Origin: a virus
Reading direction: 5' to 3' (one strand)
DNA: 64,000 nucleotides
Virus record (IMG/VR): IMGVR_UViG_3300005253_000050
Coordinates: 1 to 64,000 of that record
A model generated the notes under the pieces. That model saw nothing but the letters and a program-made list of their open reading frames with translations, searched no databases and had not been told where the DNA came from. How positions within the stretch are numbered: the stretch's first letter is position 1; each line of letters starts with the position of its first letter. Below are positions 15,390 to 63,905 of this stretch, one piece after another. A program made the translations under genes and the position numbers.

Positions 15390-15754
15390 TGCCCGAGGTG
15401 ATCCCCATGGACATGCTGTGCGAGTACATCGGCGCGGTTCCATACGACATCCAGACCGAGGCCCTCCTGCAGCGCGGCATCTCCAACCAACTGATCCGGG
15501 TCGGGATCGAGCACAAGCGGGAGGTCCGCCTGTCGCCCACCGACCGGATCGACTTCATGGTCGGTCTCATCGGGGTGGAAGTGAAAACCAAAGGCAGCCG
15601 CGCCGCACTGATCCGCCAACTCCACCGCTACGCTCAGTCGGGCCTGGTGGACGAGCTGCTAGTGGTGACCACTGTCCCATCCCTCACCCGGGTACCCCGC
15701 GAGCTATGCGGTGTTCCCATCCGCACGCTCGTTCTGTCCGCGTGCCTGCTGTGA
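15389..15754 (+). CDS. PD-(D/E)XK nuclease-like protein
   Basis: EVRL...RIDFMV..IGVEVK...QLHRYA; coupled to the SNF2 gene. Confidence 0.65.
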   Translation: MPEVIPMDMLCEYIGAVPYDIQTEALLQRGISNQLIRVGIEHKREVRLSPTDRIDFMVGLIGVEVKTKGSRAALIRQLHRYAQSGLVDELLVVTTVPSLTRVPRELCGVPIRTLVLSACLL

Positions 15755-18618
15755 AAGCAAGCTACGGACAGATCGAGCTCGCCGGGAAGTTCTGGGTCAT
15801 CCAATGCGAGGCCCACGTCCGGATCCGTTTGAAGCGAGTCTTCGGCGGCGTTCGGAAAAGCGCCTACGACGAAGTCAAGCTGGCCGACTCTCCCGAGACC
15901 TGCCGTGAGCTGCTCTGGTTCTGCGACCGGTACCCCATGGAGATCACCCCGCGCGACTACATGCAGGAGCAGTCGGATCGCCACGAGCGCGAGGAGCAGA
16001 TGGTGTTCGAGATGGTGAGCGGGCACGTGCCGCCGGCGGAGTTCGACCTGGCGCTGCCACTGCGCGACTACCAGCGGATCGCCACCGACCTTGCGCTGAA
16101 GACCGGCGGCCTGCTGGTGGCGGACGACGTCGGTCTCGGAAAGACGGCTTGTGCAATCGGCGTCTTCACGGACCTGCGCACCCTGCCGGCGCTGGTGGTG
16201 ACGCTCACGCACCTCCCGATCCAGTGGCAGCGCGAGCTGAATCGTTTCGCCCCGAAGCTCTCCACCCACATCGTCAAGAAGGGAACGCCGTACGACATCA
16301 AAGGCGGCTGGCCCGACGTCCTGATCATGAACTACCACAAGCTCGCGGGCTGGGCCGACGTGCTAGCAAACCGAGTCCGCTCCGTGGTGTTCGATGAGAT
16401 CCAGGAGCTACGCACCGGTGCCGAGAAAAGCGCCAAGGGTGCGGCGGCCAATCACATCGCTAAGAGCGTCGGGTTCAGGATGGGGCTGAGCGCGACGCCG
16501 ATCTACAACCACGGCTTCGAGATGTTCAACGTGATGGAGTGCGTGCGCCCCGGCGCCCTCGGCCCCGAGCACGAGTTCCGTAATGAGTGGGTGGACAACT
16601 ACGGCCGGGTCAAGGATCCGCAGGCGTTCGGGACCTATCTCCGCGACGCGGGGATGATGCTGCGCCGCACCCGCGAGGACGTCCAGCGGGAGCTGCGGCC
16701 GCTGACCAAGGTGCCGCATTGGATCAGTGCCGACTTCGACGCGATGGACAAGGTCGCGCGCTCCGCGGATGAGCTGGCGCTGGCCATCGTGAACCCGGCG
16801 GATCTGAATCAGAAGGATCAGTTCGGCGCCGAGCGAGAGTTCAACTCGCTGCTGCGCCAGGCGACCGGCGTGGCGAAGGCTCCCTACGTCGCCGAGTTCG
16901 TCCGCATGCTTCTTGACCGCGGCGAGCAGGTGGTTCTGTACGGGTGGCACCGAGTGGTCTACAGCCTATGGCTCGACCGGCTGAAGGACTACCGGCCCGC
17001 GATGTACACCGGCTCGGAGTCTCCGAAGCAAAAGGACGAGGCGATCCAGCGGTTCATGGATCGGGATGCTCGAGTACTCCTGATCTCCCTCCGCTCCGGC
17101 GCGGGGCTCGACGGCCTCCAGCACCACACCCGCACTGTCGTCTTCGGCGAGCTGGACTGGAGCCCCGGCGTACACGAACAGTGTCTGTCCGATGACACCG
17201 AGGTACTTACTCGCAGTGGGTTCTGTGGAAGAGATGACGTTGAAGTCGGAGACGAGATTGCGGCCTTCGACTTGGCCGACAGCAGTATTCGATGGACCCC
17301 GGCGCAGAGCAAGACGGACCGCCCCATGTATGCCGGCGAACGGATGTATGCTGCCGTCACAGAAAAGACAGCGCTGCGGGTAACGGGCGAGCACCGACTT
17401 GTTGTCCGGCGAAGCACTCGCACAACAGAGGGGCGCGGGCGATCACCGTGGGAGATTGTTTTGGCGCAGAGCGTAGCAGGTGCTACGCGGCGATTCATTC
17501 CCACATGTGGATTTGAGGATGCACCAGGAGTAGATCTGACCGACTATGAGCTTCGGCTGATTGGTTGGTTCGTCACCGATGGCAGTTTCAATGGTAGGTT
17601 TGTGACTATTTTTCAGGCGGCCCATCAGCCATGGAACGAAGACCTTGTTGAGGTGCTGGACGGCTGCGACCTCACATGGCACCGCTACACACGACAGAAT
17701 CCAAGCGGTCCAATGAACCTCTACTGCATACCCAAAGGGACGCTTCATCGGTGGTCTAGAAATGAGGTCGACCGACTGCGAGAGATGCTGCGAAACGGGC
17801 TTGGATACAAGGATGTCTCGACTGCGCTGAATCGATCCGCGGCGGCGGTGGGAAAAAAAGCAAGGAAGCTGGAGTCCCATGGAGAGGGGATGCCAGTCGC
17901 CAAGCGAACCGTTCGCGGCTGGTTGCATCTACACGACTACTTGGACAAGGACCTGAGCCCATTATTGGAGCAGATAACTCGCAAGCAACTCATACAACTG
18001 CTGCGTGGAATATACATGGGGGACGGAGCCAAGAGCCCGAAGCTCAAGAACGTCACCCGGATCACTAGCGTCAACAAGCTGTTCATGGACAGACTGCAGT
18101 CGCTCTGTGTCCGGCGTGGATTCTCTGCGACGATATCCCGCCGGAAAGCAAAAACGAGCGCCGGAAATACGGCCTACGATATTTTCATTTCGGAGGCGGC
18201 GGACGCCAGCCTTCCTGGTGCAAACAAACGCAATGGATTTGCTGAATCACCCCGGACTGATCGCGAACGCGTCTGGTGTGTGACGAACGAAATGGGCACT
18301 CTGATCACTCGCCGCAACGGCAAAGTTGCAATCGTAGGAAATTGCATCGGGCGGGTCCACCGCGACGGCCAGCTGGACCCTGTTACTGCCTACTACCTGC
18401 TCGCCGAGGTGGGGGTCGACCCGTTCATGAGCAAGGTCCTCGGAATCAAGCGGACGCAGATCGAGGGCATCAAAGATCCGACGGGCGCAGCCCAGCCCAA
18501 CTACGACGTCGCTGGCGACAGCATCAAGCAGCTGGCCCGGGATTATCTGGAGCAACGCAAGAAGACGAAAGGAACGGAGCATGCAGGCAACTTCGATCGA
18601 GTGGTGTATTTCGACTGA
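15751..18618 (+). CDS. SNF2-family helicase interrupted by an intein
   Basis: LRDYQ, ADDVGLGKT, FDEIQ, LSATP, GAGLDG, Q|CIGRVHR. Confidence 0.92.
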   Translation: MKASYGQIELAGKFWVIQCEAHVRIRLKRVFGGVRKSAYDEVKLADSPETCRELLWFCDRYPMEITPRDYMQEQSDRHEREEQMVFEMVSGHVPPAEFDLALPLRDYQRIATDLALKTGGLLVADDVGLGKTACAIGVFTDLRTLPALVVTLTHLPIQWQRELNRFAPKLSTHIVKKGTPYDIKGGWPDVLIMNYHKLAGWADVLANRVRSVVFDEIQELRTGAEKSAKGAAANHIAKSVGFRMGLSATPIYNHGFEMFNVMECVRPGALGPEHEFRNEWVDNYGRVKDPQAFGTYLRDAGMMLRRTREDVQRELRPLTKVPHWISADFDAMDKVARSADELALAIVNPADLNQKDQFGAEREFNSLLRQATGVAKAPYVAEFVRMLLDRGEQVVLYGWHRVVYSLWLDRLKDYRPAMYTGSESPKQKDEAIQRFMDRDARVLLISLRSGAGLDGLQHHTRTVVFGELDWSPGVHEQCLSDDTEVLTRSGFCGRDDVEVGDEIAAFDLADSSIRWTPAQSKTDRPMYAGERMYAAVTEKTALRVTGEHRLVVRRSTRTTEGRGRSPWEIVLAQSVAGATRRFIPTCGFEDAPGVDLTDYELRLIGWFVTDGSFNGRFVTIFQAAHQPWNEDLVEVLDGCDLTWHRYTRQNPSGPMNLYCIPKGTLHRWSRNEVDRLREMLRNGLGYKDVSTALNRSAAAVGKKARKLESHGEGMPVAKRTVRGWLHLHDYLDKDLSPLLEQITRKQLIQLLRGIYMGDGAKSPKLKNVTRITSVNKLFMDRLQSLCVRRGFSATISRRKAKTSAGNTAYDIFISEAADASLPGANKRNGFAESPRTDRERVWCVTNEMGTLITRRNGKVAIVGNCIGRVHRDGQLDPVTAYYLLAEVGVDPFMSKVLGIKRTQIEGIKDPTGAAQPNYDVAGDSIKQLARDYLEQRKKTKGTEHAGNFDRVVYFD
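17182..18342 (+). mobile_element. 387-aa intein with LAGLIDADG homing endonuclease
   Basis: Starts CLSDDTEVLT; block B VTGEHRL; LIGWFVTDG and LRGIYMGDG; ends VWCV...IVGN|C; lower GC than the exteins. Confidence 0.93.
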
Positions 18619-23061: not shown

Positions 23062-23134
23062 GGGCCCATAGCTCAACTGGCAGAGCGCCGGACTCATAAT
23101 CCGTTGGCTGCAGGATCGTACCCTGCTGGGCCCA
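23062..23134 (+). tRNA. tRNA with CAT anticodon, probably Ile2 (lysidine type); non-canonical T-loop; no encoded CCA
   Basis: Cloverleaf GGGCCCA/TGGGCCC, D-stem GCTC/GAGC, loop CT-CAT-AA, T-stem GCAGG/CCTGC; C4-G69 and C5-G68 favour Ile2 over Met. Confidence 0.85.
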
Positions 23135-53509: not shown

Positions 53510-53995
53510 GTGGAGCACAGCGTGACAGGAAAGATAAACCTCCTGGCGACCATAGCGCCGTCGTCGGTGAGGGAGATCAGGGCGACCAGACGGATGAACC
53601 AGCTGAAGGGCCAGGCGAGCGATACGCTCGAGGGGCTGCTCCGGCCGCTGGTGCTGGTGGTGGACGACGACAAGGAGTTCCGCGGCATCCTTCATGCCCA
53701 CCTCCAGGCATCGGAGCTATGCAGGGCGGTGGCGGTCGCGTCGGCGACAGAGGCGCTGGGCGTGCTCACGCGCGACCCGGTGCAGCTGGTGGTGACCGAC
53801 TTCCACATGCCGGTGATGGATGGGGTGGCGCTCCTGCGCGTGGTCAAGAAACGGTGGCCGGGGGTGATCCGGGTGCTGATGTCTGGGAGTCACGCCTCGG
53901 CGGTCCCAAGGAACGAGCTGATGGCGAAGTTCCTCCGGAAGCACGAGAGCCTGATGGTGATGACGGACGCCTTGCTAGGGCTGATCCCGATCTGA
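53510..53995 (+). CDS. response-regulator receiver domain protein
   Basis: VLVVDDD, VVTDFHMPVMDG, LMSG, FLRK. Confidence 0.88.
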   Translation: MEHSVTGKINLLATIAPSSVREIRATRRMNQLKGQASDTLEGLLRPLVLVVDDDKEFRGILHAHLQASELCRAVAVASATEALGVLTRDPVQLVVTDFHMPVMDGVALLRVVKKRWPGVIRVLMSGSHASAVPRNELMAKFLRKHESLMVMTDALLGLIPI

Positions 53996-56534: not shown

Positions 56535-58337
56535 ATGGCCGCTCAGACGCCCGCACCGCCCGAATCAACAGAACTCACCGTGACGGTGATCAAGGCCGCC
56601 CCGAAGATCGATGTTGACTTCGGTCGGGCCCGGGAGGACGCCGACGAGGTGCAATGGGGACTGAGTTTCCCGCTCCCGCGTCCCTTAGATGTAGATAAAC
56701 TCCTGCTGCTCTTCTCGGTTTCGGATACGCTCCAGCAATGCGTCGACGCAATGGTGTCAAATATTGACGCCAGGGGATGGGCTCCCGAGCCTGTCCTGGA
56801 CCTCGATGCAGACGATGCCGCGGAGCAGGTAGCGACGGCGATGTATCTGGAGCGCCGGTCTCGATCCCCGGCCGCCTCAATGCCGACAGCAGAGGAGGTG
56901 GAGGAGACGCTGAAGGAGTGGCGGCGCGAGGCCCGTCTGGAGAAGGCGCTGCTCAAGCTGCGCGTCAAGGCCCTGTGCTACGAGAGCTCTTTCTCGGAGC
57001 TCCGCCAGCAGAAGCGTCGAGACCGAGAGGTGATCGGGTGGGGGGCCTGGGAAATAATCCGCAGCGACAGCGGCGATATCGTCCGCGCGAAGCACGTCCC
57101 GTCGCGCACACTCTGGCTGACTACGATCGATGACGAGGTCACCGCGACGCCGGCCTGGCTCCCGACGAGCGATGTCAGCCGCGAGGCCGTTATCGTCGAC
57201 CGGCGCTTCCGGCGGGTGATCCAGATCGACAGCGCTGGCGCCTATACCTATTTCAAGTGGTTCGGTGATCCGCGGATCATCTCGGCCAAAAGCGGGAAGC
57301 CCTACGACTCTGAGAAGGACCTCCTCGAGGCTGATGGAGAAGACCACGAGGCCGGCGAGGTCAAGGGTGAGCCCCCGAAGCCGGCGACGGAGATCTTGTG
57401 GTTCGGGACGTACTACCCGGAGGGCGCCTACCCGCAGCCACGGTGGCACGGGCTGATCCCGAACATCGTCGGCAGCCGCGAGGCGTCAGAGGACAACGCC
57501 CGGTACCTGTCGAACTCCGCCATCCCCCAGGGGCTGCTCCTGGTCTCGGACGGGCGGGTCGGCCCCTCGTCGAAGGGCAGCCTGTCGACGTTCTTCGAAT
57601 CGAACGAGGGGAATGCGCGGCAGAAGATCGCCGTGGTGGAGGCCACCACCCCGCGCGAAAACGCGATCCTTCCTGGGTCCGGCCGCGTGCAGCTCGAGTG
57701 GGTGTCGCTGCGGCAGGCCCAGCAGGACGACCTCACCTTCAGCCAGTACATCATGATGACCTCCGACCAGGTGGGCGAGGCCTTCCGCCTGCCGTCGCTG
57801 CTGCGCGGCCGGGTGAAGGACCTGAATAAAGCCAACGCCGTCGCCGTGCTGGAGTTCGCCGAAGACCAGGTGTTCGCCCCGGAGCGCCAGTCCTTCGACG
57901 ACCTCATCAATGACACCCTGGTCGCCAACTGGGGGATCCGGTTCTGGCGCTTCAAGTCCCTCGGCTCTCGCAAGCGGGATCCGGAGTCCATCGCCAAAAT
58001 CGCCGAGGCGTTCCTCCGCGCCGGCGTGGTCACCCCCGCCGAGCTGCGGGATCTTGCCGAGCAGCTGCTGGGTGTCGACCTCCCGAGCTCGGCCAGCGAC
58101 TGGCAGCACATCACTCAGCTGATGGTCACCGCCGGCCACATCCCCCCCTCGGCCAAGCCGCCGGAAACGGTGAGCCAGCCAGTCGGGCCGCCGGCGGATC
58201 CGGATGAATTGCAGGAGCCGCCGACCGGGTCCGCCGAGGACATCGCGAAACGGATCCTCAAGATGGAGGCCTTCCTTGCCACTGCCCGCCAGGCGGAGGC
58301 GATGGCCACGATGCCGGAGCCCGATGGAACTTCTTGA
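56535..58337 (+). CDS. phage portal protein
   Basis: GWGAWEIIR, HVPSRT, YPQPRW, AFRLP..L, VVTPAELR; lies between TerL and MuF. Confidence 0.88.
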   Translation: MAAQTPAPPESTELTVTVIKAAPKIDVDFGRAREDADEVQWGLSFPLPRPLDVDKLLLLFSVSDTLQQCVDAMVSNIDARGWAPEPVLDLDADDAAEQVATAMYLERRSRSPAASMPTAEEVEETLKEWRREARLEKALLKLRVKALCYESSFSELRQQKRRDREVIGWGAWEIIRSDSGDIVRAKHVPSRTLWLTTIDDEVTATPAWLPTSDVSREAVIVDRRFRRVIQIDSAGAYTYFKWFGDPRIISAKSGKPYDSEKDLLEADGEDHEAGEVKGEPPKPATEILWFGTYYPEGAYPQPRWHGLIPNIVGSREASEDNARYLSNSAIPQGLLLVSDGRVGPSSKGSLSTFFESNEGNARQKIAVVEATTPRENAILPGSGRVQLEWVSLRQAQQDDLTFSQYIMMTSDQVGEAFRLPSLLRGRVKDLNKANAVAVLEFAEDQVFAPERQSFDDLINDTLVANWGIRFWRFKSLGSRKRDPESIAKIAEAFLRAGVVTPAELRDLAEQLLGVDLPSSASDWQHITQLMVTAGHIPPSAKPPETVSQPVGPPADPDELQEPPTGSAEDIAKRILKMEAFLATARQAEAMATMPEPDGTS

Positions 58338-59694
58338 GCTCCCCAGCCGCGAGGTGCTGGTGCAGCGAGGGCCAAGCGTTGGCTTCGTCGGCCCGTCCAT
58401 GGCCCGCGTCCGCATCCCCAAGGCATCCCAGGCCCAGGGTTACGTGCTGCTCCACCGCGGCGCTCACGGCGCCTGGCAGACGTTCCGCCTGACGTCGCGG
58501 AAGGAGACAGCCGCCAGGAAGCGGGCCGCCCGGGTGGCGCGGCTCATTGGCCGAAAGATTATTCTCGGTGAGCTCGTCCAGGTGGCCGGGGAGACGCAGG
58601 TGATCCGATCCATCGCCACCTACGAAACGATGTCCAAGGCCGAGCTATTCGCCCGAGCTGCAGCTGCGGCCGGCGAGGTGGCGGACATCTACAAGGCCAA
58701 GGATCCGGACCCGTACAACCCCCGGCAGTTCGACAAGATGACGGACGCCCTCGCGCGCGACCTTAACAGGGTGGCCAAGCCGGCGTTTGTAGCCACGGTC
58801 GAGAAGGCCGTGACGTCGTCCAAGATCGACTGGGCCACGGCCACCGAGAAGCAGATGGAGGCCTTCAGCAAAAAGCTCGCCGCAACTCTTGGCGTCTCTG
58901 CCGCTGCGGTCTGGAAATCGATCCGCCCCACGGTGGTTGACTCCTCCGTGACGATGGCCACCGAATCCCGCGCAGCCTTCGTGAAATCGAACAATCTCAC
59001 GGTGGACAGGGTCATCTCGCTCCAGGACAAGGCGGCCGTGACCAGGTCGGCGATGACGAACGCGCACTACGTGCGAGAGTTCGCGACCGGGCAGATGAGC
59101 CCGAGCCTGAGTTCGCAGGCCCGGGTGATCGTCCAGTCTGGAATTAGCAAAGGCGAGAGTTCCCGGATGATCGGGAAGGAGCTCCACCGGGTTCTCGGCC
59201 GGGCGGCCGGCGGCCAGACCGAGGCCTACTTCCGAATGGCTGCGAGCGCGATCAACGCCAGGTCCCGGGAGTTCTCGTCGTTGCGATCCATGCAGGACGC
59301 GGGGATCGATAAATACGAATGGAGCTCGGTGCTCGATGAGATGACCACGGAGACCTGCCGCTTCCTCGACGGCCAGGTATTCTCTGTTCAGGGCGCACTC
59401 GACCGATACAAAGCCGCCGACGCTCTAGAAGACCCCACAGACATCAAATACGAGATGCCGTGGTTCTATGACAAGCCGATCCGCGGCGGCGAGCACGACG
59501 GCAAGATGGGAATCTTTATGAACCAGCGCGGGGGGATGCAGCGTGTCGCTGTGGTTGAAAAAGGTGGCTTCGGGAAACGGGACGCGATCGGCACCTACTC
59601 CAACACCAAAAGCTCAAAGGCGTTGGAGGGAATGGGGATGCCTGCATGTCCAGGGCACAGTTTGTGACGCAGCACTACCATCCCGGTAGATTAA
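58324..59694 (+). CDS. MuF / SPP1 gp7-like minor head protein, ending at TGA 59667 or reading through to TAA 59694
   Basis: GIDKYEWSSVLDEMTTETCRFLDG; C-terminal PGHSL-TGA-RSTTIPVD matches HxxCRS; start codon uncertain. Confidence 0.85.
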
Positions 59695-59712
59695 CCGGGA
59701 CAGAGGAAGACG

Positions 59713-60051
59713 ATGAGCAACATAATCCAGCCCGGACTCTCGCACCTGATCAGCACCATGGATCTCGCCCGCATCGAGGACGCTGTCCACAAGGCGGTGA
59801 TGCGCTCGGCCGAACTGCGTGGACAAAAGATGTACACCGAGGGCAAGATCTCGCACAGCGAGTACGACCGCCGCGCGAAGTACTGCATCGAGCTCGCGCT
59901 GCGCTGGCGCAAGGAGCGTCGGTTCGCGCTCGAGCAAATCGGCGACGCGCTCAAGACCGCCCTGATCAGCTGGATCGACGGCGATGAATACGAGCCCCGC
60001 GACGGAATGTGGGCCGACCCCGACCAGAACAACCCGGCAGGTACATTATGA
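59713..60051 (+). CDS. hypothetical head-module protein
   Basis: GAGG RBS; ATGA coupling to the next gene. Confidence 0.7.
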   Translation: MSNIIQPGLSHLISTMDLARIEDAVHKAVMRSAELRGQKMYTEGKISHSEYDRRAKYCIELALRWRKERRFALEQIGDALKTALISWIDGDEYEPRDGMWADPDQNNPAGTL

Positions 60052-63000
60052 GAATCCTGAAGTCCCTCGACCCCCACTACCTGGTGCATCGGCTCGCCTC
60101 CGATCAGATCGTTGGCGTGCTCGCTGACCGCGACCTCGGCGCCCTGGCCGATGACGACATGATGCTGGCAGACGGTGAGGTGGACCCCGACTGTGAGCCT
60201 CTCGCCCATGGCGTGGTGCGGCTCCGGAAGGGCGTGCGGTTTGCCTCTGGCGAGGCGGCCGTCGCCAAGCTCGGCGAGAAGCTCGACCCGTTCATGGCCC
60301 GGACTTTCGGTGCGTCCGCTGACCCGGTGTGGTTCCACCCGCTCAAGTCCGTGGACGCCTGGGAAGAGGCCGCCGTGGTGAAGGGGCTGGAGGTGCCAGT
60401 TCGAATCCTGAAGGCCGCCGAGGTGATTCCGGATGAGGGCGCGCTGAGCGAGCTGAGTTCTGCTGGCCTTGGCGAGGTGGCGAAGCTACTGGACTCGAAT
60501 CCAGAGAGTGAGGGCGCCGAGGAGTTGGCGGTGATCGTGAAGGCCGAGTACGATCGCCGCGGACTCGAGCCCGATGAGTCGCTGCTGATCTTCAAGGGCC
60601 TCTGGGGTTACCCCGCTGGGAAAGCCAGACTGTCGAAGCGATTGGTTGAGATGATGCCAACGCACAAGGTCTACGTTGAACCATTTGTCGGGAGTGGCGC
60701 GGTGCTATTCGCGAAAGAGAAAGTAGGCACCGAGGTTGTGAACGACACCGACCCAGCTGTGGCCGAGGCCTGGCAGGTTCTTTCTGAGTTGACCGCGCAA
60801 GATCTAAAGCGCCTCTGTGGGATGAACTGGACCGGCGATCGTGACACCTTCACGAGAATGAAAAAAGAGACCGGCGGTGACGACGTAGTCAAGCTACATC
60901 GGTTTTTCTATCTCTCTAAATTTGCTTATGGTCGGTGGCGAGGGACTGGATTTTCTCCTGAAATGCAAGGACATACGGTCACAATGGCCCGAATGCTGGA
61001 AAAGAACGCTCCCCGTGCCCAAGGCGTGGTCGCTCTTCATGGTGACTACGAGGCCGTGTGTCGTAAATACGACGGCCCAGACACGTTACACTTCCTCGAT
61101 CCTCCGTACGCTGGATATGCCTCCGCTGTGGGAGAAAAGAACTTCGACGAGGAGCGTTTTTTTAAGATGCTCAAGGAACTCAAAGGGAAGTGGATCGTCA
61201 CATACGGGGTCAAGGGCAAGCTACCCAAGATGCTCCGTGATTCCGGATTTACTGTAAAGAAGGTCACCACCCATCGTTCGATCCGGACGAGCGTCGCCTC
61301 CACGAATCCGTCTGCGGTGCTTGATCAACTGATCGCATACAACTTCGATCCGAATGCCAAGGCCGAAGACCCAGCGCTTGCCCCGACAGAAGAGCCAGCC
61401 GAGGCGCCTGTCGAAGCGGAAAAAAAAAACCTAAATTCCCCGGACGCTGAGAAGCAGGAGGGCTCGCCGGTCCTCTGTTTCTATCACGGCGATCTGGACG
61501 GCGTGGCGTCCGCCGCGGTTGTTCTTCAGGCCCACCCGGCCGCCGAGCTGGCGAGCATCAACTACGGGCAGGAGTTCCCATGGGACACCATCAAGGACCG
61601 CGAGACGGTCTACATGGTGGACTTCGGGATGCAGCCGTTCGAGGAGATGGTCAAGCTCAAGGCCGAACTCGACGAGATGGGGACCAGGTTCGTGTGGATC
61701 GACCACCACATCACCGCGCTCGAGGCCGCAGAGAAGGCGGGCTTCGAGGTCGACGGTCTCCGCGAGATCGGCCAGGCCGGCTGCGAGCTGACATGGAAGT
61801 TCATCCACCCCGACGACCCCATGCCGGAGGTGGTTCGCCTCGCTGGTCGATTCGACGTCTGGGACCACGAGGACCCGAACGTCCTGCCGGTGCACTACGC
61901 GATGGAGGCAATCCCCGAAGCCAACGACCCGAGCAGCGAGTGGTGGGCCGAGTGGCTCAAGAAGGGCGAGGGGGACTTCGCTGAGCTCGTCGCCCAGGGC
62001 AAGGCGATCCAGGGCTGGCTCGAAGAGTTCAGCGCCGGCCGGATGAGGTTCTCGTCCTTCGATGTGGACTTCGCTGGGCTCAAATGCGTGGCGGCCTGCA
62101 CCTCTCTCCCTGGGTCCATTCAATTCGAGTCGGTTGGCAAGGAGCACGACGCCGCGATCTCGTTCTGCTTTTCGCCGAGAAACCAGTGGAACGTCTCGAT
62201 GTATTCCATCAAGGAAGGCGTCGACGTCGGGAAGGTCTGCATGGACAACGGCGGCGGTGGTCACGCTGGCGCCGGCGGGTTCCAGTGCACGGAGCTGCCG
62301 TTCGACCTCCCGGCCTCCACCAAGAAGGCTTACGACCTCCGCGAGCCCCTCGCCGCCTACGCTCACGACGCCTGGTCTCGGTGGATGGATCATCTCTTCG
62401 AGCAGGCATCTCCCGACGGGACGATGGCGCCCGAAGACGTGGAGCGATGGAAGCGCCTGATCACGACCAAGTACGCCGACCTCACCGAGGATGAAAAGGA
62501 GTCCGATCGCCTCGAGGCGGACCGGTTGCTGGCGGTGATGAGCGGGCGGGACGACGAGGTCGAGAAGGCCGCAGTGGCACCGCTTGCCCCGGCCCCGGCG
62601 CTCGCCGTTTTCAAGCCGACCGAGGAGAACTCCTTCGACGACGTGAAGGAGCTGCTCGAGAAGTTCGGGACGGACGAATCACTCGGCGCCGGTGTCGGGG
62701 TCGGGCCGAAGTGGAACGGCCAGCTCGCCATCGTTCACAGCGTACCTGACGGCGTGTCGATCCACTACGAAGGCAACCCCACCGAGCAGGCTCCGAACCT
62801 CAAGGCCATCGCCGCGTCGGCCGCCAAATTCGACGACGGGTATGCTCTCATCGGCGAGGTGGTGGAGGCTGACATCGGCGCGGTGTTCATGGCGCGCGAC
62901 GTGCTCCACTGGGCGGGTGTCGACCACTCGGCCGAGCCGTGGTCTGCGCGACAGAAGATCCTAGACCAGGCGGTCCCGCAGGCGACCGCCGCCATCGCCC

Positions 63001-63905
63001 CCGCCCCCGCTCGGCTGGTTCATTCAGCCGACACTTTGAAGGCCGCGATCACCTGGGCGGCCGAGGTTCCGGGATCCGTCGGGGCGGTGATCACCCCCGC
63101 TGATTCAGTCGCGACGCCAGGTGGATCCGCACCTCAGATTGCCGAGGTTCGGACCCCTCGGATCGTCAACGCGATGGTGGTCGGAGCGGATTCGAATCCG
63201 GATGGATCCAACGTCTATCAGTGCGCCGTCGGGCCGCTTTCGGATTCGGAGTCAGATCGTCTTAAAGAGGTGGTCGAGGTCGGTGGGCGGAACTATGCAA
63301 TCGTCGGATCTGTGTGTACACCTTCTGTGAATGCCTCTGTGGGCGATACACTAAGAGTGGAAGTGGGCGAAATATTGGTGGTTGACAGCGAAGATTCGGC
63401 CGCGATAGGATGGGACTCATCAAAGGTACTCGAGCGGGTGCACGTAAAACCCGCGACGGTATCCGAAGTTCGAGCACTGGCGCGACCACATGAGATCCAG
63501 AAACTCTGCAAAATCCTCAAGCGCGATTCGGAGCGGCATTACATCCTCAGTGTTGTGCTCGAGCCGAACGATGGCAAGGGCGAAGCACCACTGGATCCCG
63601 ACGCCCACAACGATATTTACTCCGACGACGAGATCTGGGATGCCTGCGTGTATTGGTACGAGCAGGGCGCCGGCCTTGGCGTCATGCATGAGCGCGGAGC
63701 GACCACCTCAGAGCTGCTCCCGGTCCACAATATCATCGCCCCGGTCGACATGGAGATCGGCGGCGAGTTTGTGCGGGCTGGTTCGTGGCTCATTGGATCT
63801 CTCGTCCTATCTGCCGACCTCTGGCAGCGGATTGAATCTGGGGAGCTCAACGCGTGGAGCGTTGATGGACGAGCGCTTCGGCGCCCCGAGGCAATAGCAG
63901 CTTGA
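60048..63905 (+). CDS. multidomain protein: D12-class DNA adenine methylase + DHH phosphoesterase + RyR-like + DNA-ligase-like + XkdF-like prohead protease
   Basis: GYPAGK/YVEPFVGSG/LDPPY; YHGDLDG/IDHH/GGGGHAGAGGF; AHDAW...YADLTEDEKESDR; PKWNG..LIGEV..ARDVL; VVLEP..DAHND..VMH..GSWL..GELNAWSVDG. Confidence 0.85.
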   Translation: MRILKSLDPHYLVHRLASDQIVGVLADRDLGALADDDMMLADGEVDPDCEPLAHGVVRLRKGVRFASGEAAVAKLGEKLDPFMARTFGASADPVWFHPLKSVDAWEEAAVVKGLEVPVRILKAAEVIPDEGALSELSSAGLGEVAKLLDSNPESEGAEELAVIVKAEYDRRGLEPDESLLIFKGLWGYPAGKARLSKRLVEMMPTHKVYVEPFVGSGAVLFAKEKVGTEVVNDTDPAVAEAWQVLSELTAQDLKRLCGMNWTGDRDTFTRMKKETGGDDVVKLHRFFYLSKFAYGRWRGTGFSPEMQGHTVTMARMLEKNAPRAQGVVALHGDYEAVCRKYDGPDTLHFLDPPYAGYASAVGEKNFDEERFFKMLKELKGKWIVTYGVKGKLPKMLRDSGFTVKKVTTHRSIRTSVASTNPSAVLDQLIAYNFDPNAKAEDPALAPTEEPAEAPVEAEKKNLNSPDAEKQEGSPVLCFYHGDLDGVASAAVVLQAHPAAELASINYGQEFPWDTIKDRETVYMVDFGMQPFEEMVKLKAELDEMGTRFVWIDHHITALEAAEKAGFEVDGLREIGQAGCELTWKFIHPDDPMPEVVRLAGRFDVWDHEDPNVLPVHYAMEAIPEANDPSSEWWAEWLKKGEGDFAELVAQGKAIQGWLEEFSAGRMRFSSFDVDFAGLKCVAACTSLPGSIQFESVGKEHDAAISFCFSPRNQWNVSMYSIKEGVDVGKVCMDNGGGGHAGAGGFQCTELPFDLPASTKKAYDLREPLAAYAHDAWSRWMDHLFEQASPDGTMAPEDVERWKRLITTKYADLTEDEKESDRLEADRLLAVMSGRDDEVEKAAVAPLAPAPALAVFKPTEENSFDDVKELLEKFGTDESLGAGVGVGPKWNGQLAIVHSVPDGVSIHYEGNPTEQAPNLKAIAASAAKFDDGYALIGEVVEADIGAVFMARDVLHWAGVDHSAEPWSARQKILDQAVPQATAAIAPAPARLVHSADTLKAAITWAAEVPGSVGAVITPADSVATPGGSAPQIAEVRTPRIVNAMVVGADSNPDGSNVYQCAVGPLSDSESDRLKEVVEVGGRNYAIVGSVCTPSVNASVGDTLRVEVGEILVVDSEDSAAIGWDSSKVLERVHVKPATVSEVRALARPHEIQKLCKILKRDSERHYILSVVLEPNDGKGEAPLDPDAHNDIYSDDEIWDACVYWYEQGAGLGVMHERGATTSELLPVHNIIAPVDMEIGGEFVRAGSWLIGSLVLSADLWQRIESGELNAWSVDGRALRRPEAIAA

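Follow-up and report, generated by a model that had tools for sequence, protein, structure and literature searches.

An in-frame UGA at the invariant cysteine codon of a phage MuF head protein gene: a candidate site of selenocysteine decoding

The prototype of a bacterial selenoprotein gene is Escherichia coli fdhF, within whose open reading frame (ORF) lies a selenocysteine insertion sequence (SECIS) that is read by SelB. Viruses of eukaryotes also specify this amino acid, the glutathione-peroxidase homologues of molluscum contagiosum and fowlpox viruses being selenoproteins with SECIS elements of the eukaryotic type in the 3′ untranslated region. A different use of UGA is that of Qbeta, where a structural gene ends in a leaky UGA that permits insertion of tryptophan and synthesis of the low-copy virion A1, or readthrough, protein whose extension is a large new domain. 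The subject here is the gene for a MuF-like head protein in the first 64,000 nucleotides, hereafter the window, of a complete virus record of 93,600 bp (IMG/VR record IMGVR_UViG_3300005253_000050; direct terminal repeats, 62% G+C) from marine sediment. The frame of that gene is interrupted by UGA precisely where its relatives have an invariant cysteine, a SECIS-like hairpin follows, and we consider it somewhat probable that the UGA is decoded as selenocysteine (Sec) by the SelB of the host.

How does this locus compare with the described cases? As in bacterial selenoprotein genes, an in-frame UGA stands against Cys in homologues, coding continues beyond it and there is a stem-loop just 3′ of it. 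Unlike them, the product is a phage virion or head-assembly protein instead of a cellular redox enzyme, and the decoding machinery must be that of the host; further, the 3′ arm of the hairpin lies past the real stop codon, since only eight codons follow the UGA, and the loop reads G-A, not G followed by G or U. Leaning on host Sec machinery for a UGA of its own is what the phage would have in common with the selenoprotein-encoding viruses of eukaryotes; theirs, however, are captured host redox enzymes, whereas here a phage-specific structural family and a bacterial-type element within the ORF are involved. As with Qbeta A1, there is a structural gene with a terminal UGA whose low-frequency readthrough could yield a minor virion component; the Qbeta UGA, however, does not coincide with a conserved Cys, while the one considered here takes the place of an invariant Cys, with the normal C-terminus of the family as the extension.

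MuF/gp7 proteins are head components, packaged with DNA and often fused to effector domains that are injected (PMC5512222, PMC9503650, PMC5576092). With Mu F and SPP1 gp7 (PF04233) the window's protein shares a gene next to that of the portal, a match to the domain, the invariant C...PPxHxxCR and the possession of relatives with long C-terminal extensions; it differs in having UGA in place of the Cys codon. Stop codons, readthrough and cysteine in MuF are not discussed in those three papers, and have zero occurrences in the one on MuF toxins (PMC5576092). Nor is there mention of phages or viruses in a 2026 selenoproteome review (PMC13188914), BSepDB, deep-Sep or the GOS selenoproteome paper. 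The sequence-based prediction from which the present work started (below, the original prediction) knew of no described phage MuF selenoprotein, and neither that nor any other report of a phage selenoprotein was found in the full-text literature searched, which omits most subscription journals.

The UGA and its in-frame continuation

The MuF gene is on the plus strand and has 447 codons (58324-59664) ahead of TGA 59665-59667, which occupies the position of residue 448. Just as had been claimed, to the exact coordinate, the frame then runs on: CGC AGC ACT ACC ATC CCG GTA GAT, specifying RSTTIPVD, with TAA at 59692-59694 (59668-59694 for the eight codons and their stop, plus strand). These residues fit the family consensus CR[ST]T.[IV]P, and the alignment of the protein with phrog_13868 (E=1.6e-37) crosses the TGA to reach residue 495 of 496. 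The family motif PPxHxxCR takes the form CPGHSL-U-R in the window, with UGA standing at the Cys position. It had also been asserted that this motif goes with an upstream Cys, in TETC, and alignments of 64 and 55 sequences confirm both as family features, for invariant in the C-terminal domain are D338, C345 (the last residue of TTETC, counted from the Met at 58324; codon 59356-59358, plus strand), P379, G423, P443, H445 (the His of HxxC/U; CAC, 59656-59658, plus strand), C448, which is the UGA position, and R449.

Were Sec, and not another residue, to be inserted, SelB bearing Sec-tRNA(Sec) in a Sec-competent host would attach to the hairpin (59681-59700) upon arrival of the ribosome at the UGA, Sec would enter where relatives carry the invariant Cys of the D...C...H-x-x-C-R site, and translation of eight more codons to the TAA would complete a 456-residue MuF with U448. 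Ribosomes that stop at the UGA would release a 447-residue product, probably inactive, in which both the invariant residue and the final beta strand are missing.

How common is the stop in the family? A word-indexed search gave seven relatives. Five of them (P0005, P0006, P0008, P0009 and P0010, at 80-56% identity) stop where the window's protein stops, right after H-x-x, and P0007 (68% identity) reads ...HGG-C-RSTAIPV... and has 317 further residues. An exhaustive HMMER search of 1.84 billion cluster representatives gave 1,265 matches, and the motif was counted in the best 150 of these together with the word-search relatives, about 155 in all. The motif PP.H..CR[ST]T.[IV]P is there with its Cys in 135, only about four end elsewhere ahead of it, and in 13, namely the five relatives just mentioned (56-80% identity) and eight more cluster representatives, the protein stops exactly one residue short of the Cys. 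With the window's protein the stop-type set is P0005, P0006, P0008-P0010, P0023, P0025-P0027, P0032, P0038, P0104 and P0156; the 13 are protein-level cases. They come mostly from long contigs, of 15-98 kb, and so their ends were not made by contig ends. The single match to a cultured phage by tblastn was a weak one, Rhizobium phage P11VFA at 31%.

Is the TGA then nothing other than the plain stop of a shortened protein, with MuF being functional in the absence of its last Cys and its C-terminal strand? Gene callers do annotate 447-residue proteins in many contigs, the loss in the window is of nine residues only, and from TGY (Y being C or T) to TGA is a change of one base. What is found in the DNA of relatives bears on this. 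With the window's protein, P0008, P0010 and P0006 as queries, a search for related loci in viral contigs returned the L002 contig or nothing, genome contigs yielded L001 only, and metagenome contigs yielded L002 and a distant locus, L003. Relatives with TGY at the site, looked for at the suggestion of the original prediction, do exist. In L002, a 5.5-kb contig (84% identity across the final 198 residues), TGC occupies the column and is followed by RSTTIPVV and a stop; the codon in L001, the contig that encodes P0007, is TGT. After the column L002 continues AGG TCG ACT ACC ATC CCG GTC and L001 continues CGC TCC ACG GCT ATC CCG GTG. RST[TA]IPV is thus common to the window, L002 and L001, with Arg specified by CGC, AGG and CGC in that order, Ser by AGC, TCG and TCC, and Val by GTA, GTC and GTG, so that across the three DNAs these residues are preserved through two-, three- and one-base codon changes, respectively. 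With L001 as outgroup, the switch of Ser codon family from TCN to AGC falls on the side of the window. The synonymous changes after the codon look like the pattern expected of purifying selection on a translated peptide.

A maximum-likelihood tree, some inner nodes of which are weak, puts the window's protein in a clade of nine members (support 99/99). Seven are stop-type, P0010, which is basal, P0008, P0009, P0038, the window's protein, P0005 and P0006, and nested inside them, with tails intact, are the Cys-type members P0007 and L002. In the same tree P0025 and P0026 are separate stop-type lineages beside Cys-type sisters. The branching suggests either that the stop state is old and has been followed by two reversions to Cys with the tail intact, or that it arose at least four times. 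Persistence and repeated origin of the stop would both speak for decoding as the reason that the UGA is tolerated.

Does the site accept any stop codon, or UGA alone? IMG/VR DNA was scanned, the sample being small, for P-P-x-H-G-x-[codon]-R-[S/T/C/W]-x3-P with the codon varied. With TGA as the codon 42 stretches matched, and five contigs, from two lineages, are true MuF over the Pfam cut-off. Three of these (L009, L015 and L045) have 438 codons, TGA and then 359 more in-frame codons, and the other two (L021 and L027) have 277 codons, TGA and then 124 more, the Pfam match spanning the TGA in L021. With the 13 homologues or representatives that end at the same column, these two further lineages in which TGA is read in DNA dispose of the concern, raised at the outset, that the TGA might be a singleton; the stop recurs in several lineages. 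With TAA or TAG as the codon, and Arg fixed as CGN as it is in the true TGA matches, six stretches matched and none is MuF, and with TGY there were at least 119, about 92 among the matches listed having long MuF-type ORFs. A second TGA pattern, with Thr at +3, gave chance matches only in IMG/VR. TGA is an ordinary stop also in the other TGA-type contigs. The scan points toward a site that takes UGA and never UAA or UAG. The 359 post-TGA codons of the MuF gene at L015:6158-8551 (plus strand), and likewise of those in L009 and L045, have no Pfam match; if there is readthrough in those contigs, a whole C-terminal domain has been missed by gene callers.

Against true termination there stand, then, the invariance of the Cys and of the next Arg in all other members, a downstream peptide that holds the family consensus through synonymous codon changes, the 359 and 124 in-frame codons after TGA in other lineages, the nesting of Cys-type members with intact tails among stop-type ones, the lack of TAA or TAG cases in the IMG/VR scan, and the modelling of the tail as a confident beta strand. 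We regard a plain stop as decidedly improbable.

With any unexpected stop codon the first suspicion is of an error. Logan contigs from three runs, which represent two samples of a single study and have word depths of 12.3, 29.7 and 3.9, show the identical TGA, and there is no differing letter from 59300 to 59900, which bears out that the codon is TGA and not TGY. Those runs possibly include the source sample or samples, and therefore an assembly slip is excluded, identical TGA being present in separately assembled contigs from two samples, yet no independent biology is gained. That everything comes from one metagenomic study, with runs that may contain the source samples, is what a sequencing or assembly artefact, or recent inactivation by mutation in a dead genome, has in its favour; the identity of the TGA in independently assembled contigs of two samples at depth 12-30, the stop at the same position in 13 diverged homologues, and a complete genome with terminal repeats and a single MuF gene make either very unlikely. 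In a six-frame PF04233 search the complete 93.6-kb genome had that one MuF gene only, and the UGA-bearing gene is therefore not a decaying spare copy; a decayed extra paralogue was considered and ruled out on this ground.

Nor is the code altered. An essential gene with an in-frame TGA is what would be expected on reassignment of TGA to sense throughout the genome, in the manner of code 4 or 25 and as in some recoded phages. However, TGA is the commonest ordinary stop of the phage, ending 48 of 98 long ORFs (35 end with TAG and 15 with TAA), and the genetic code is therefore standard; under code 11 the coding density already stands at 0.89, neighbouring genes fuse when TGA is taken as sense so that the 98 ORFs become 63, and no suppressor tRNA is encoded. 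Stop-codon usage rules out this reassignment, to which we give next to no credence. The only tRNA gene in the 93.6 kb is for tRNA-Met (anticodon CAT, window 23062-23134, plus strand). A screen for further in-frame TGAs in the phage was uninformative at 62% G+C. It brought up TGA 18616-18618 (plus strand), the end of a 1,066-residue ORF (15418-18618), after which there are 161 in-frame codons and a SECIS-type hairpin of -13.5 kcal/mol; that continuation is probably due to chance in G+C-rich DNA, since the next gene uses another frame.

The hairpin and the means of decoding

The hairpin, on the plus strand at 59681-59700, has a perfect 7-bp stem, with arms TCCCGGT (59681-59687) and ACCGGGA (59694-59700) and the loop AGATTA (59688-59693). 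From the UGA to the stem is 13 nt and to the loop 20 nt, G is at loop position 2, the 5′ arm is within the I-P-V codons and the 3′ arm begins at the last base of the TAA. It alone constitutes the centroid fold of the region (-12.1 kcal/mol). No U-tract follows, and no terminator-like site was called in 58000-60500, which rules out an intrinsic terminator. The stem, the loop, the spacing and the absence of a U-tract are exactly as originally described. The bacterial SECIS (bSECIS) model calls for an apical loop of 3-9 nt, an upper stem of 4-16 bp, a distance from UGA to loop of 16-37 nt and a minimum free energy of -7.5 kcal/mol or lower, with G at loop position 1 or 2 and, most often, G or U after it (PMC13188914). 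Checked against this model as the original prediction had advised, the window hairpin is inside all four published constraints (a loop of 6 nt on a 7-bp stem, G at loop position 2, a distance of 20 nt, and -11.5 kcal/mol by the scanner). An Rfam search gave nothing at E up to 10.

How unusual is such a structure? Under SECIS constraints, -11.5 kcal/mol is reached by none of 61 de-duplicated Cys-type MuF controls, 13% of which reach -7.5 kcal/mol, and it is reached at 4.3% of the 2,539 UGA triplets in the phage. Taken alone the hairpin is only moderately unusual. Of the relatives with a Cys codon, L002 (TGC) has two differences in the 3′ arm and a best SECIS-type score of -2.4, and L001 (TGT) scores -8.5, apparently by chance. 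Among the three TGA lineages for which there is DNA, the hairpin is of mixed quality: it is strong in the window, borderline in L021, where ACUCCU / UGGUUG / AGGAGU lies 12 nt after the UGA, and wanting in L015.

If the UGA is decoded, must it be as Sec? Programmed readthrough independent of Sec, in which a near-cognate tRNA, for Cys or Trp, would now and then act at UGA-C, perhaps aided by the hairpin, and so supply a small dose of full-length MuF, much as Qbeta obtains A1, is also in keeping with conserved post-UGA coding and with MuF being a low-copy virion protein. In all three lineages with DNA it is C that follows the UGA, a weak context, two of the three have weak hairpins, and the phage has no Sec genes. 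Dosing, however, could use any codon near the 3′ end, and the stop is always on the one invariant Cys codon, which fits a Sec/Cys exchange; Trp in place of the invariant Cys would probably be inactive, and the geometry of the window hairpin fits the bSECIS model. Readthrough of that sort strikes us as unlikely, if by no means far-fetched. That the UGA at the conserved Cys is recoded, whether to Sec by host SelB or by inefficient readthrough, was the central proposal of the original prediction, and it is supported, the observations that might have undone it having mostly turned out favourably.

For decoding as Sec the source of the machinery is a natural focus. The 91.9-kb contig L001, which is that of the closest full-length relative and is Cys-type, was binned in a metagenome-assembled genome (MAG; G001, 4.6 Mb) that has selB (351 bits), selA (466 bits), selD (358 bits) and tRNA-Sec (67.7 bits), all over their cut-offs. 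This fits a Sec-using host lineage and is a weak hint of the kind of host, one possessing selABCD, that the phage would need. In 208 genomes of the phylum of that MAG there were two MuF matches, neither with TGA. The selD gene of the MAG (G001:C199:4387-5304, minus strand) has one in-frame TGA, and for that reason probably specifies a selenoprotein form of SelD itself.

Several considerations weigh against Sec and need to be set out. Known bacterial selenoproteins are mostly redox enzymes and not virion proteins. Searches of the phage for tRNA-Sec, selB and selD found none of them, and the link between the MAG and L001 may be an accident of binning. As for the hairpin as a putative SelB site, the G-A of its loop is not the preferred sequence; a hairpin of any kind of equal strength is near the stop at 7% of 98 gene ends in the phage; the best hairpin of L021, at -7.4, is borderline and is equalled by 13% of the controls; and the best of L015, at -4.4, fails the bSECIS model and is equalled by 31%. 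The indication of selection in the window's lineage comes from few sites, there being seven or eight post-UGA codons, and the close stop-type relatives are compared as proteins only.

The C-terminal domain and the implications of a virion selenoprotein

What is the invariant residue for? AlphaFold gives the read-through protein a pLDDT (predicted local distance difference test score) of 94.5 and the C-terminal domain modelled by itself 96.7, and in both models the post-UGA residues are a beta strand with pLDDT of about 90-96. The middle of the protein is modelled as a long helical bundle. A sequence search of the PDB gave no relative of the MuF protein, comparison of the C-terminal domain model (window 59299-59693) with 48,161 PDB representatives gave no structure above Z 2.9, and with the whole model Foldseek and VIA-align gave generic helical bundles only, for residues 127-327. 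The domain is very common in phages, and its core, with the invariant D/C/H/C(U)/R, seems to be structurally uncharacterised.

Beyond the one locus is the issue of whether MuF is a recurrent phage selenoprotein family, with many unrelated lineages swapping the invariant Cys for Sec and borrowing host SelB to do so; we would put the chances of that as even. A large proportion of tailed phages have MuF. If Sec is indeed inserted, this would be a selenoprotein family that phages carry and incorporate in the virion. The Cys/His site, invariant in MuF, would then be chemically active, in redox or metal chemistry, in addition to any scaffolding part, and virion assembly and productive infection would be tied to the Sec machinery of the host and to the supply of selenium, a new determinant of host range. 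Gene callers would, moreover, be systematically truncating such MuF genes, and in lineages with hundreds of codons beyond the UGA whole domains would be missed, likely injected effector domains among them.

The MuF gene in its head module

The start of the MuF gene is ATG 58324 (MELLELPS...), and not the ATG 58204 of the ORF list from which 40 Arg-rich and unconserved residues would be added, because homologues begin at the former point. PF04233 is matched with 32.6 bits in a six-frame search (cut-off 29.6) and with 28.8 bits, just under, when the whole protein is used; the homologues likewise carry this domain. The gene adjoins that of the portal protein in the head module, being directly 3′ of it. 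The portal gene (56535-58337, plus strand; PF04860 E=8e-7, phrog_12 E=1.2e-19) overlaps the MuF start by 14 nt. On the other side is a conserved ORF of 112 amino acids (59713-60051, plus strand) with a ribosome-binding site, GAGGAAG, at 59703-59709; it has no Pfam or PHROG match, and the same gene is 3′ of MuF in L002.

Two genes 3′ of MuF is that for a polyvalent protein of 1,298 residues (window 60009-63905, plus strand). It has the domains of a D12-class N6-adenine DNA methyltransferase (residues 202-400) and, just under the cut-off, DHH (491-600), and its C-terminus (1168-1289) is an S78 phage serine protease of the XkdF type. It looks like a multi-effector that is packaged in the head and joined to the prohead protease. 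A 161-residue ORF (window 53510-53995, plus strand) that lies just upstream of the head module contains a response-regulator receiver domain (PF00072, E=3e-14).

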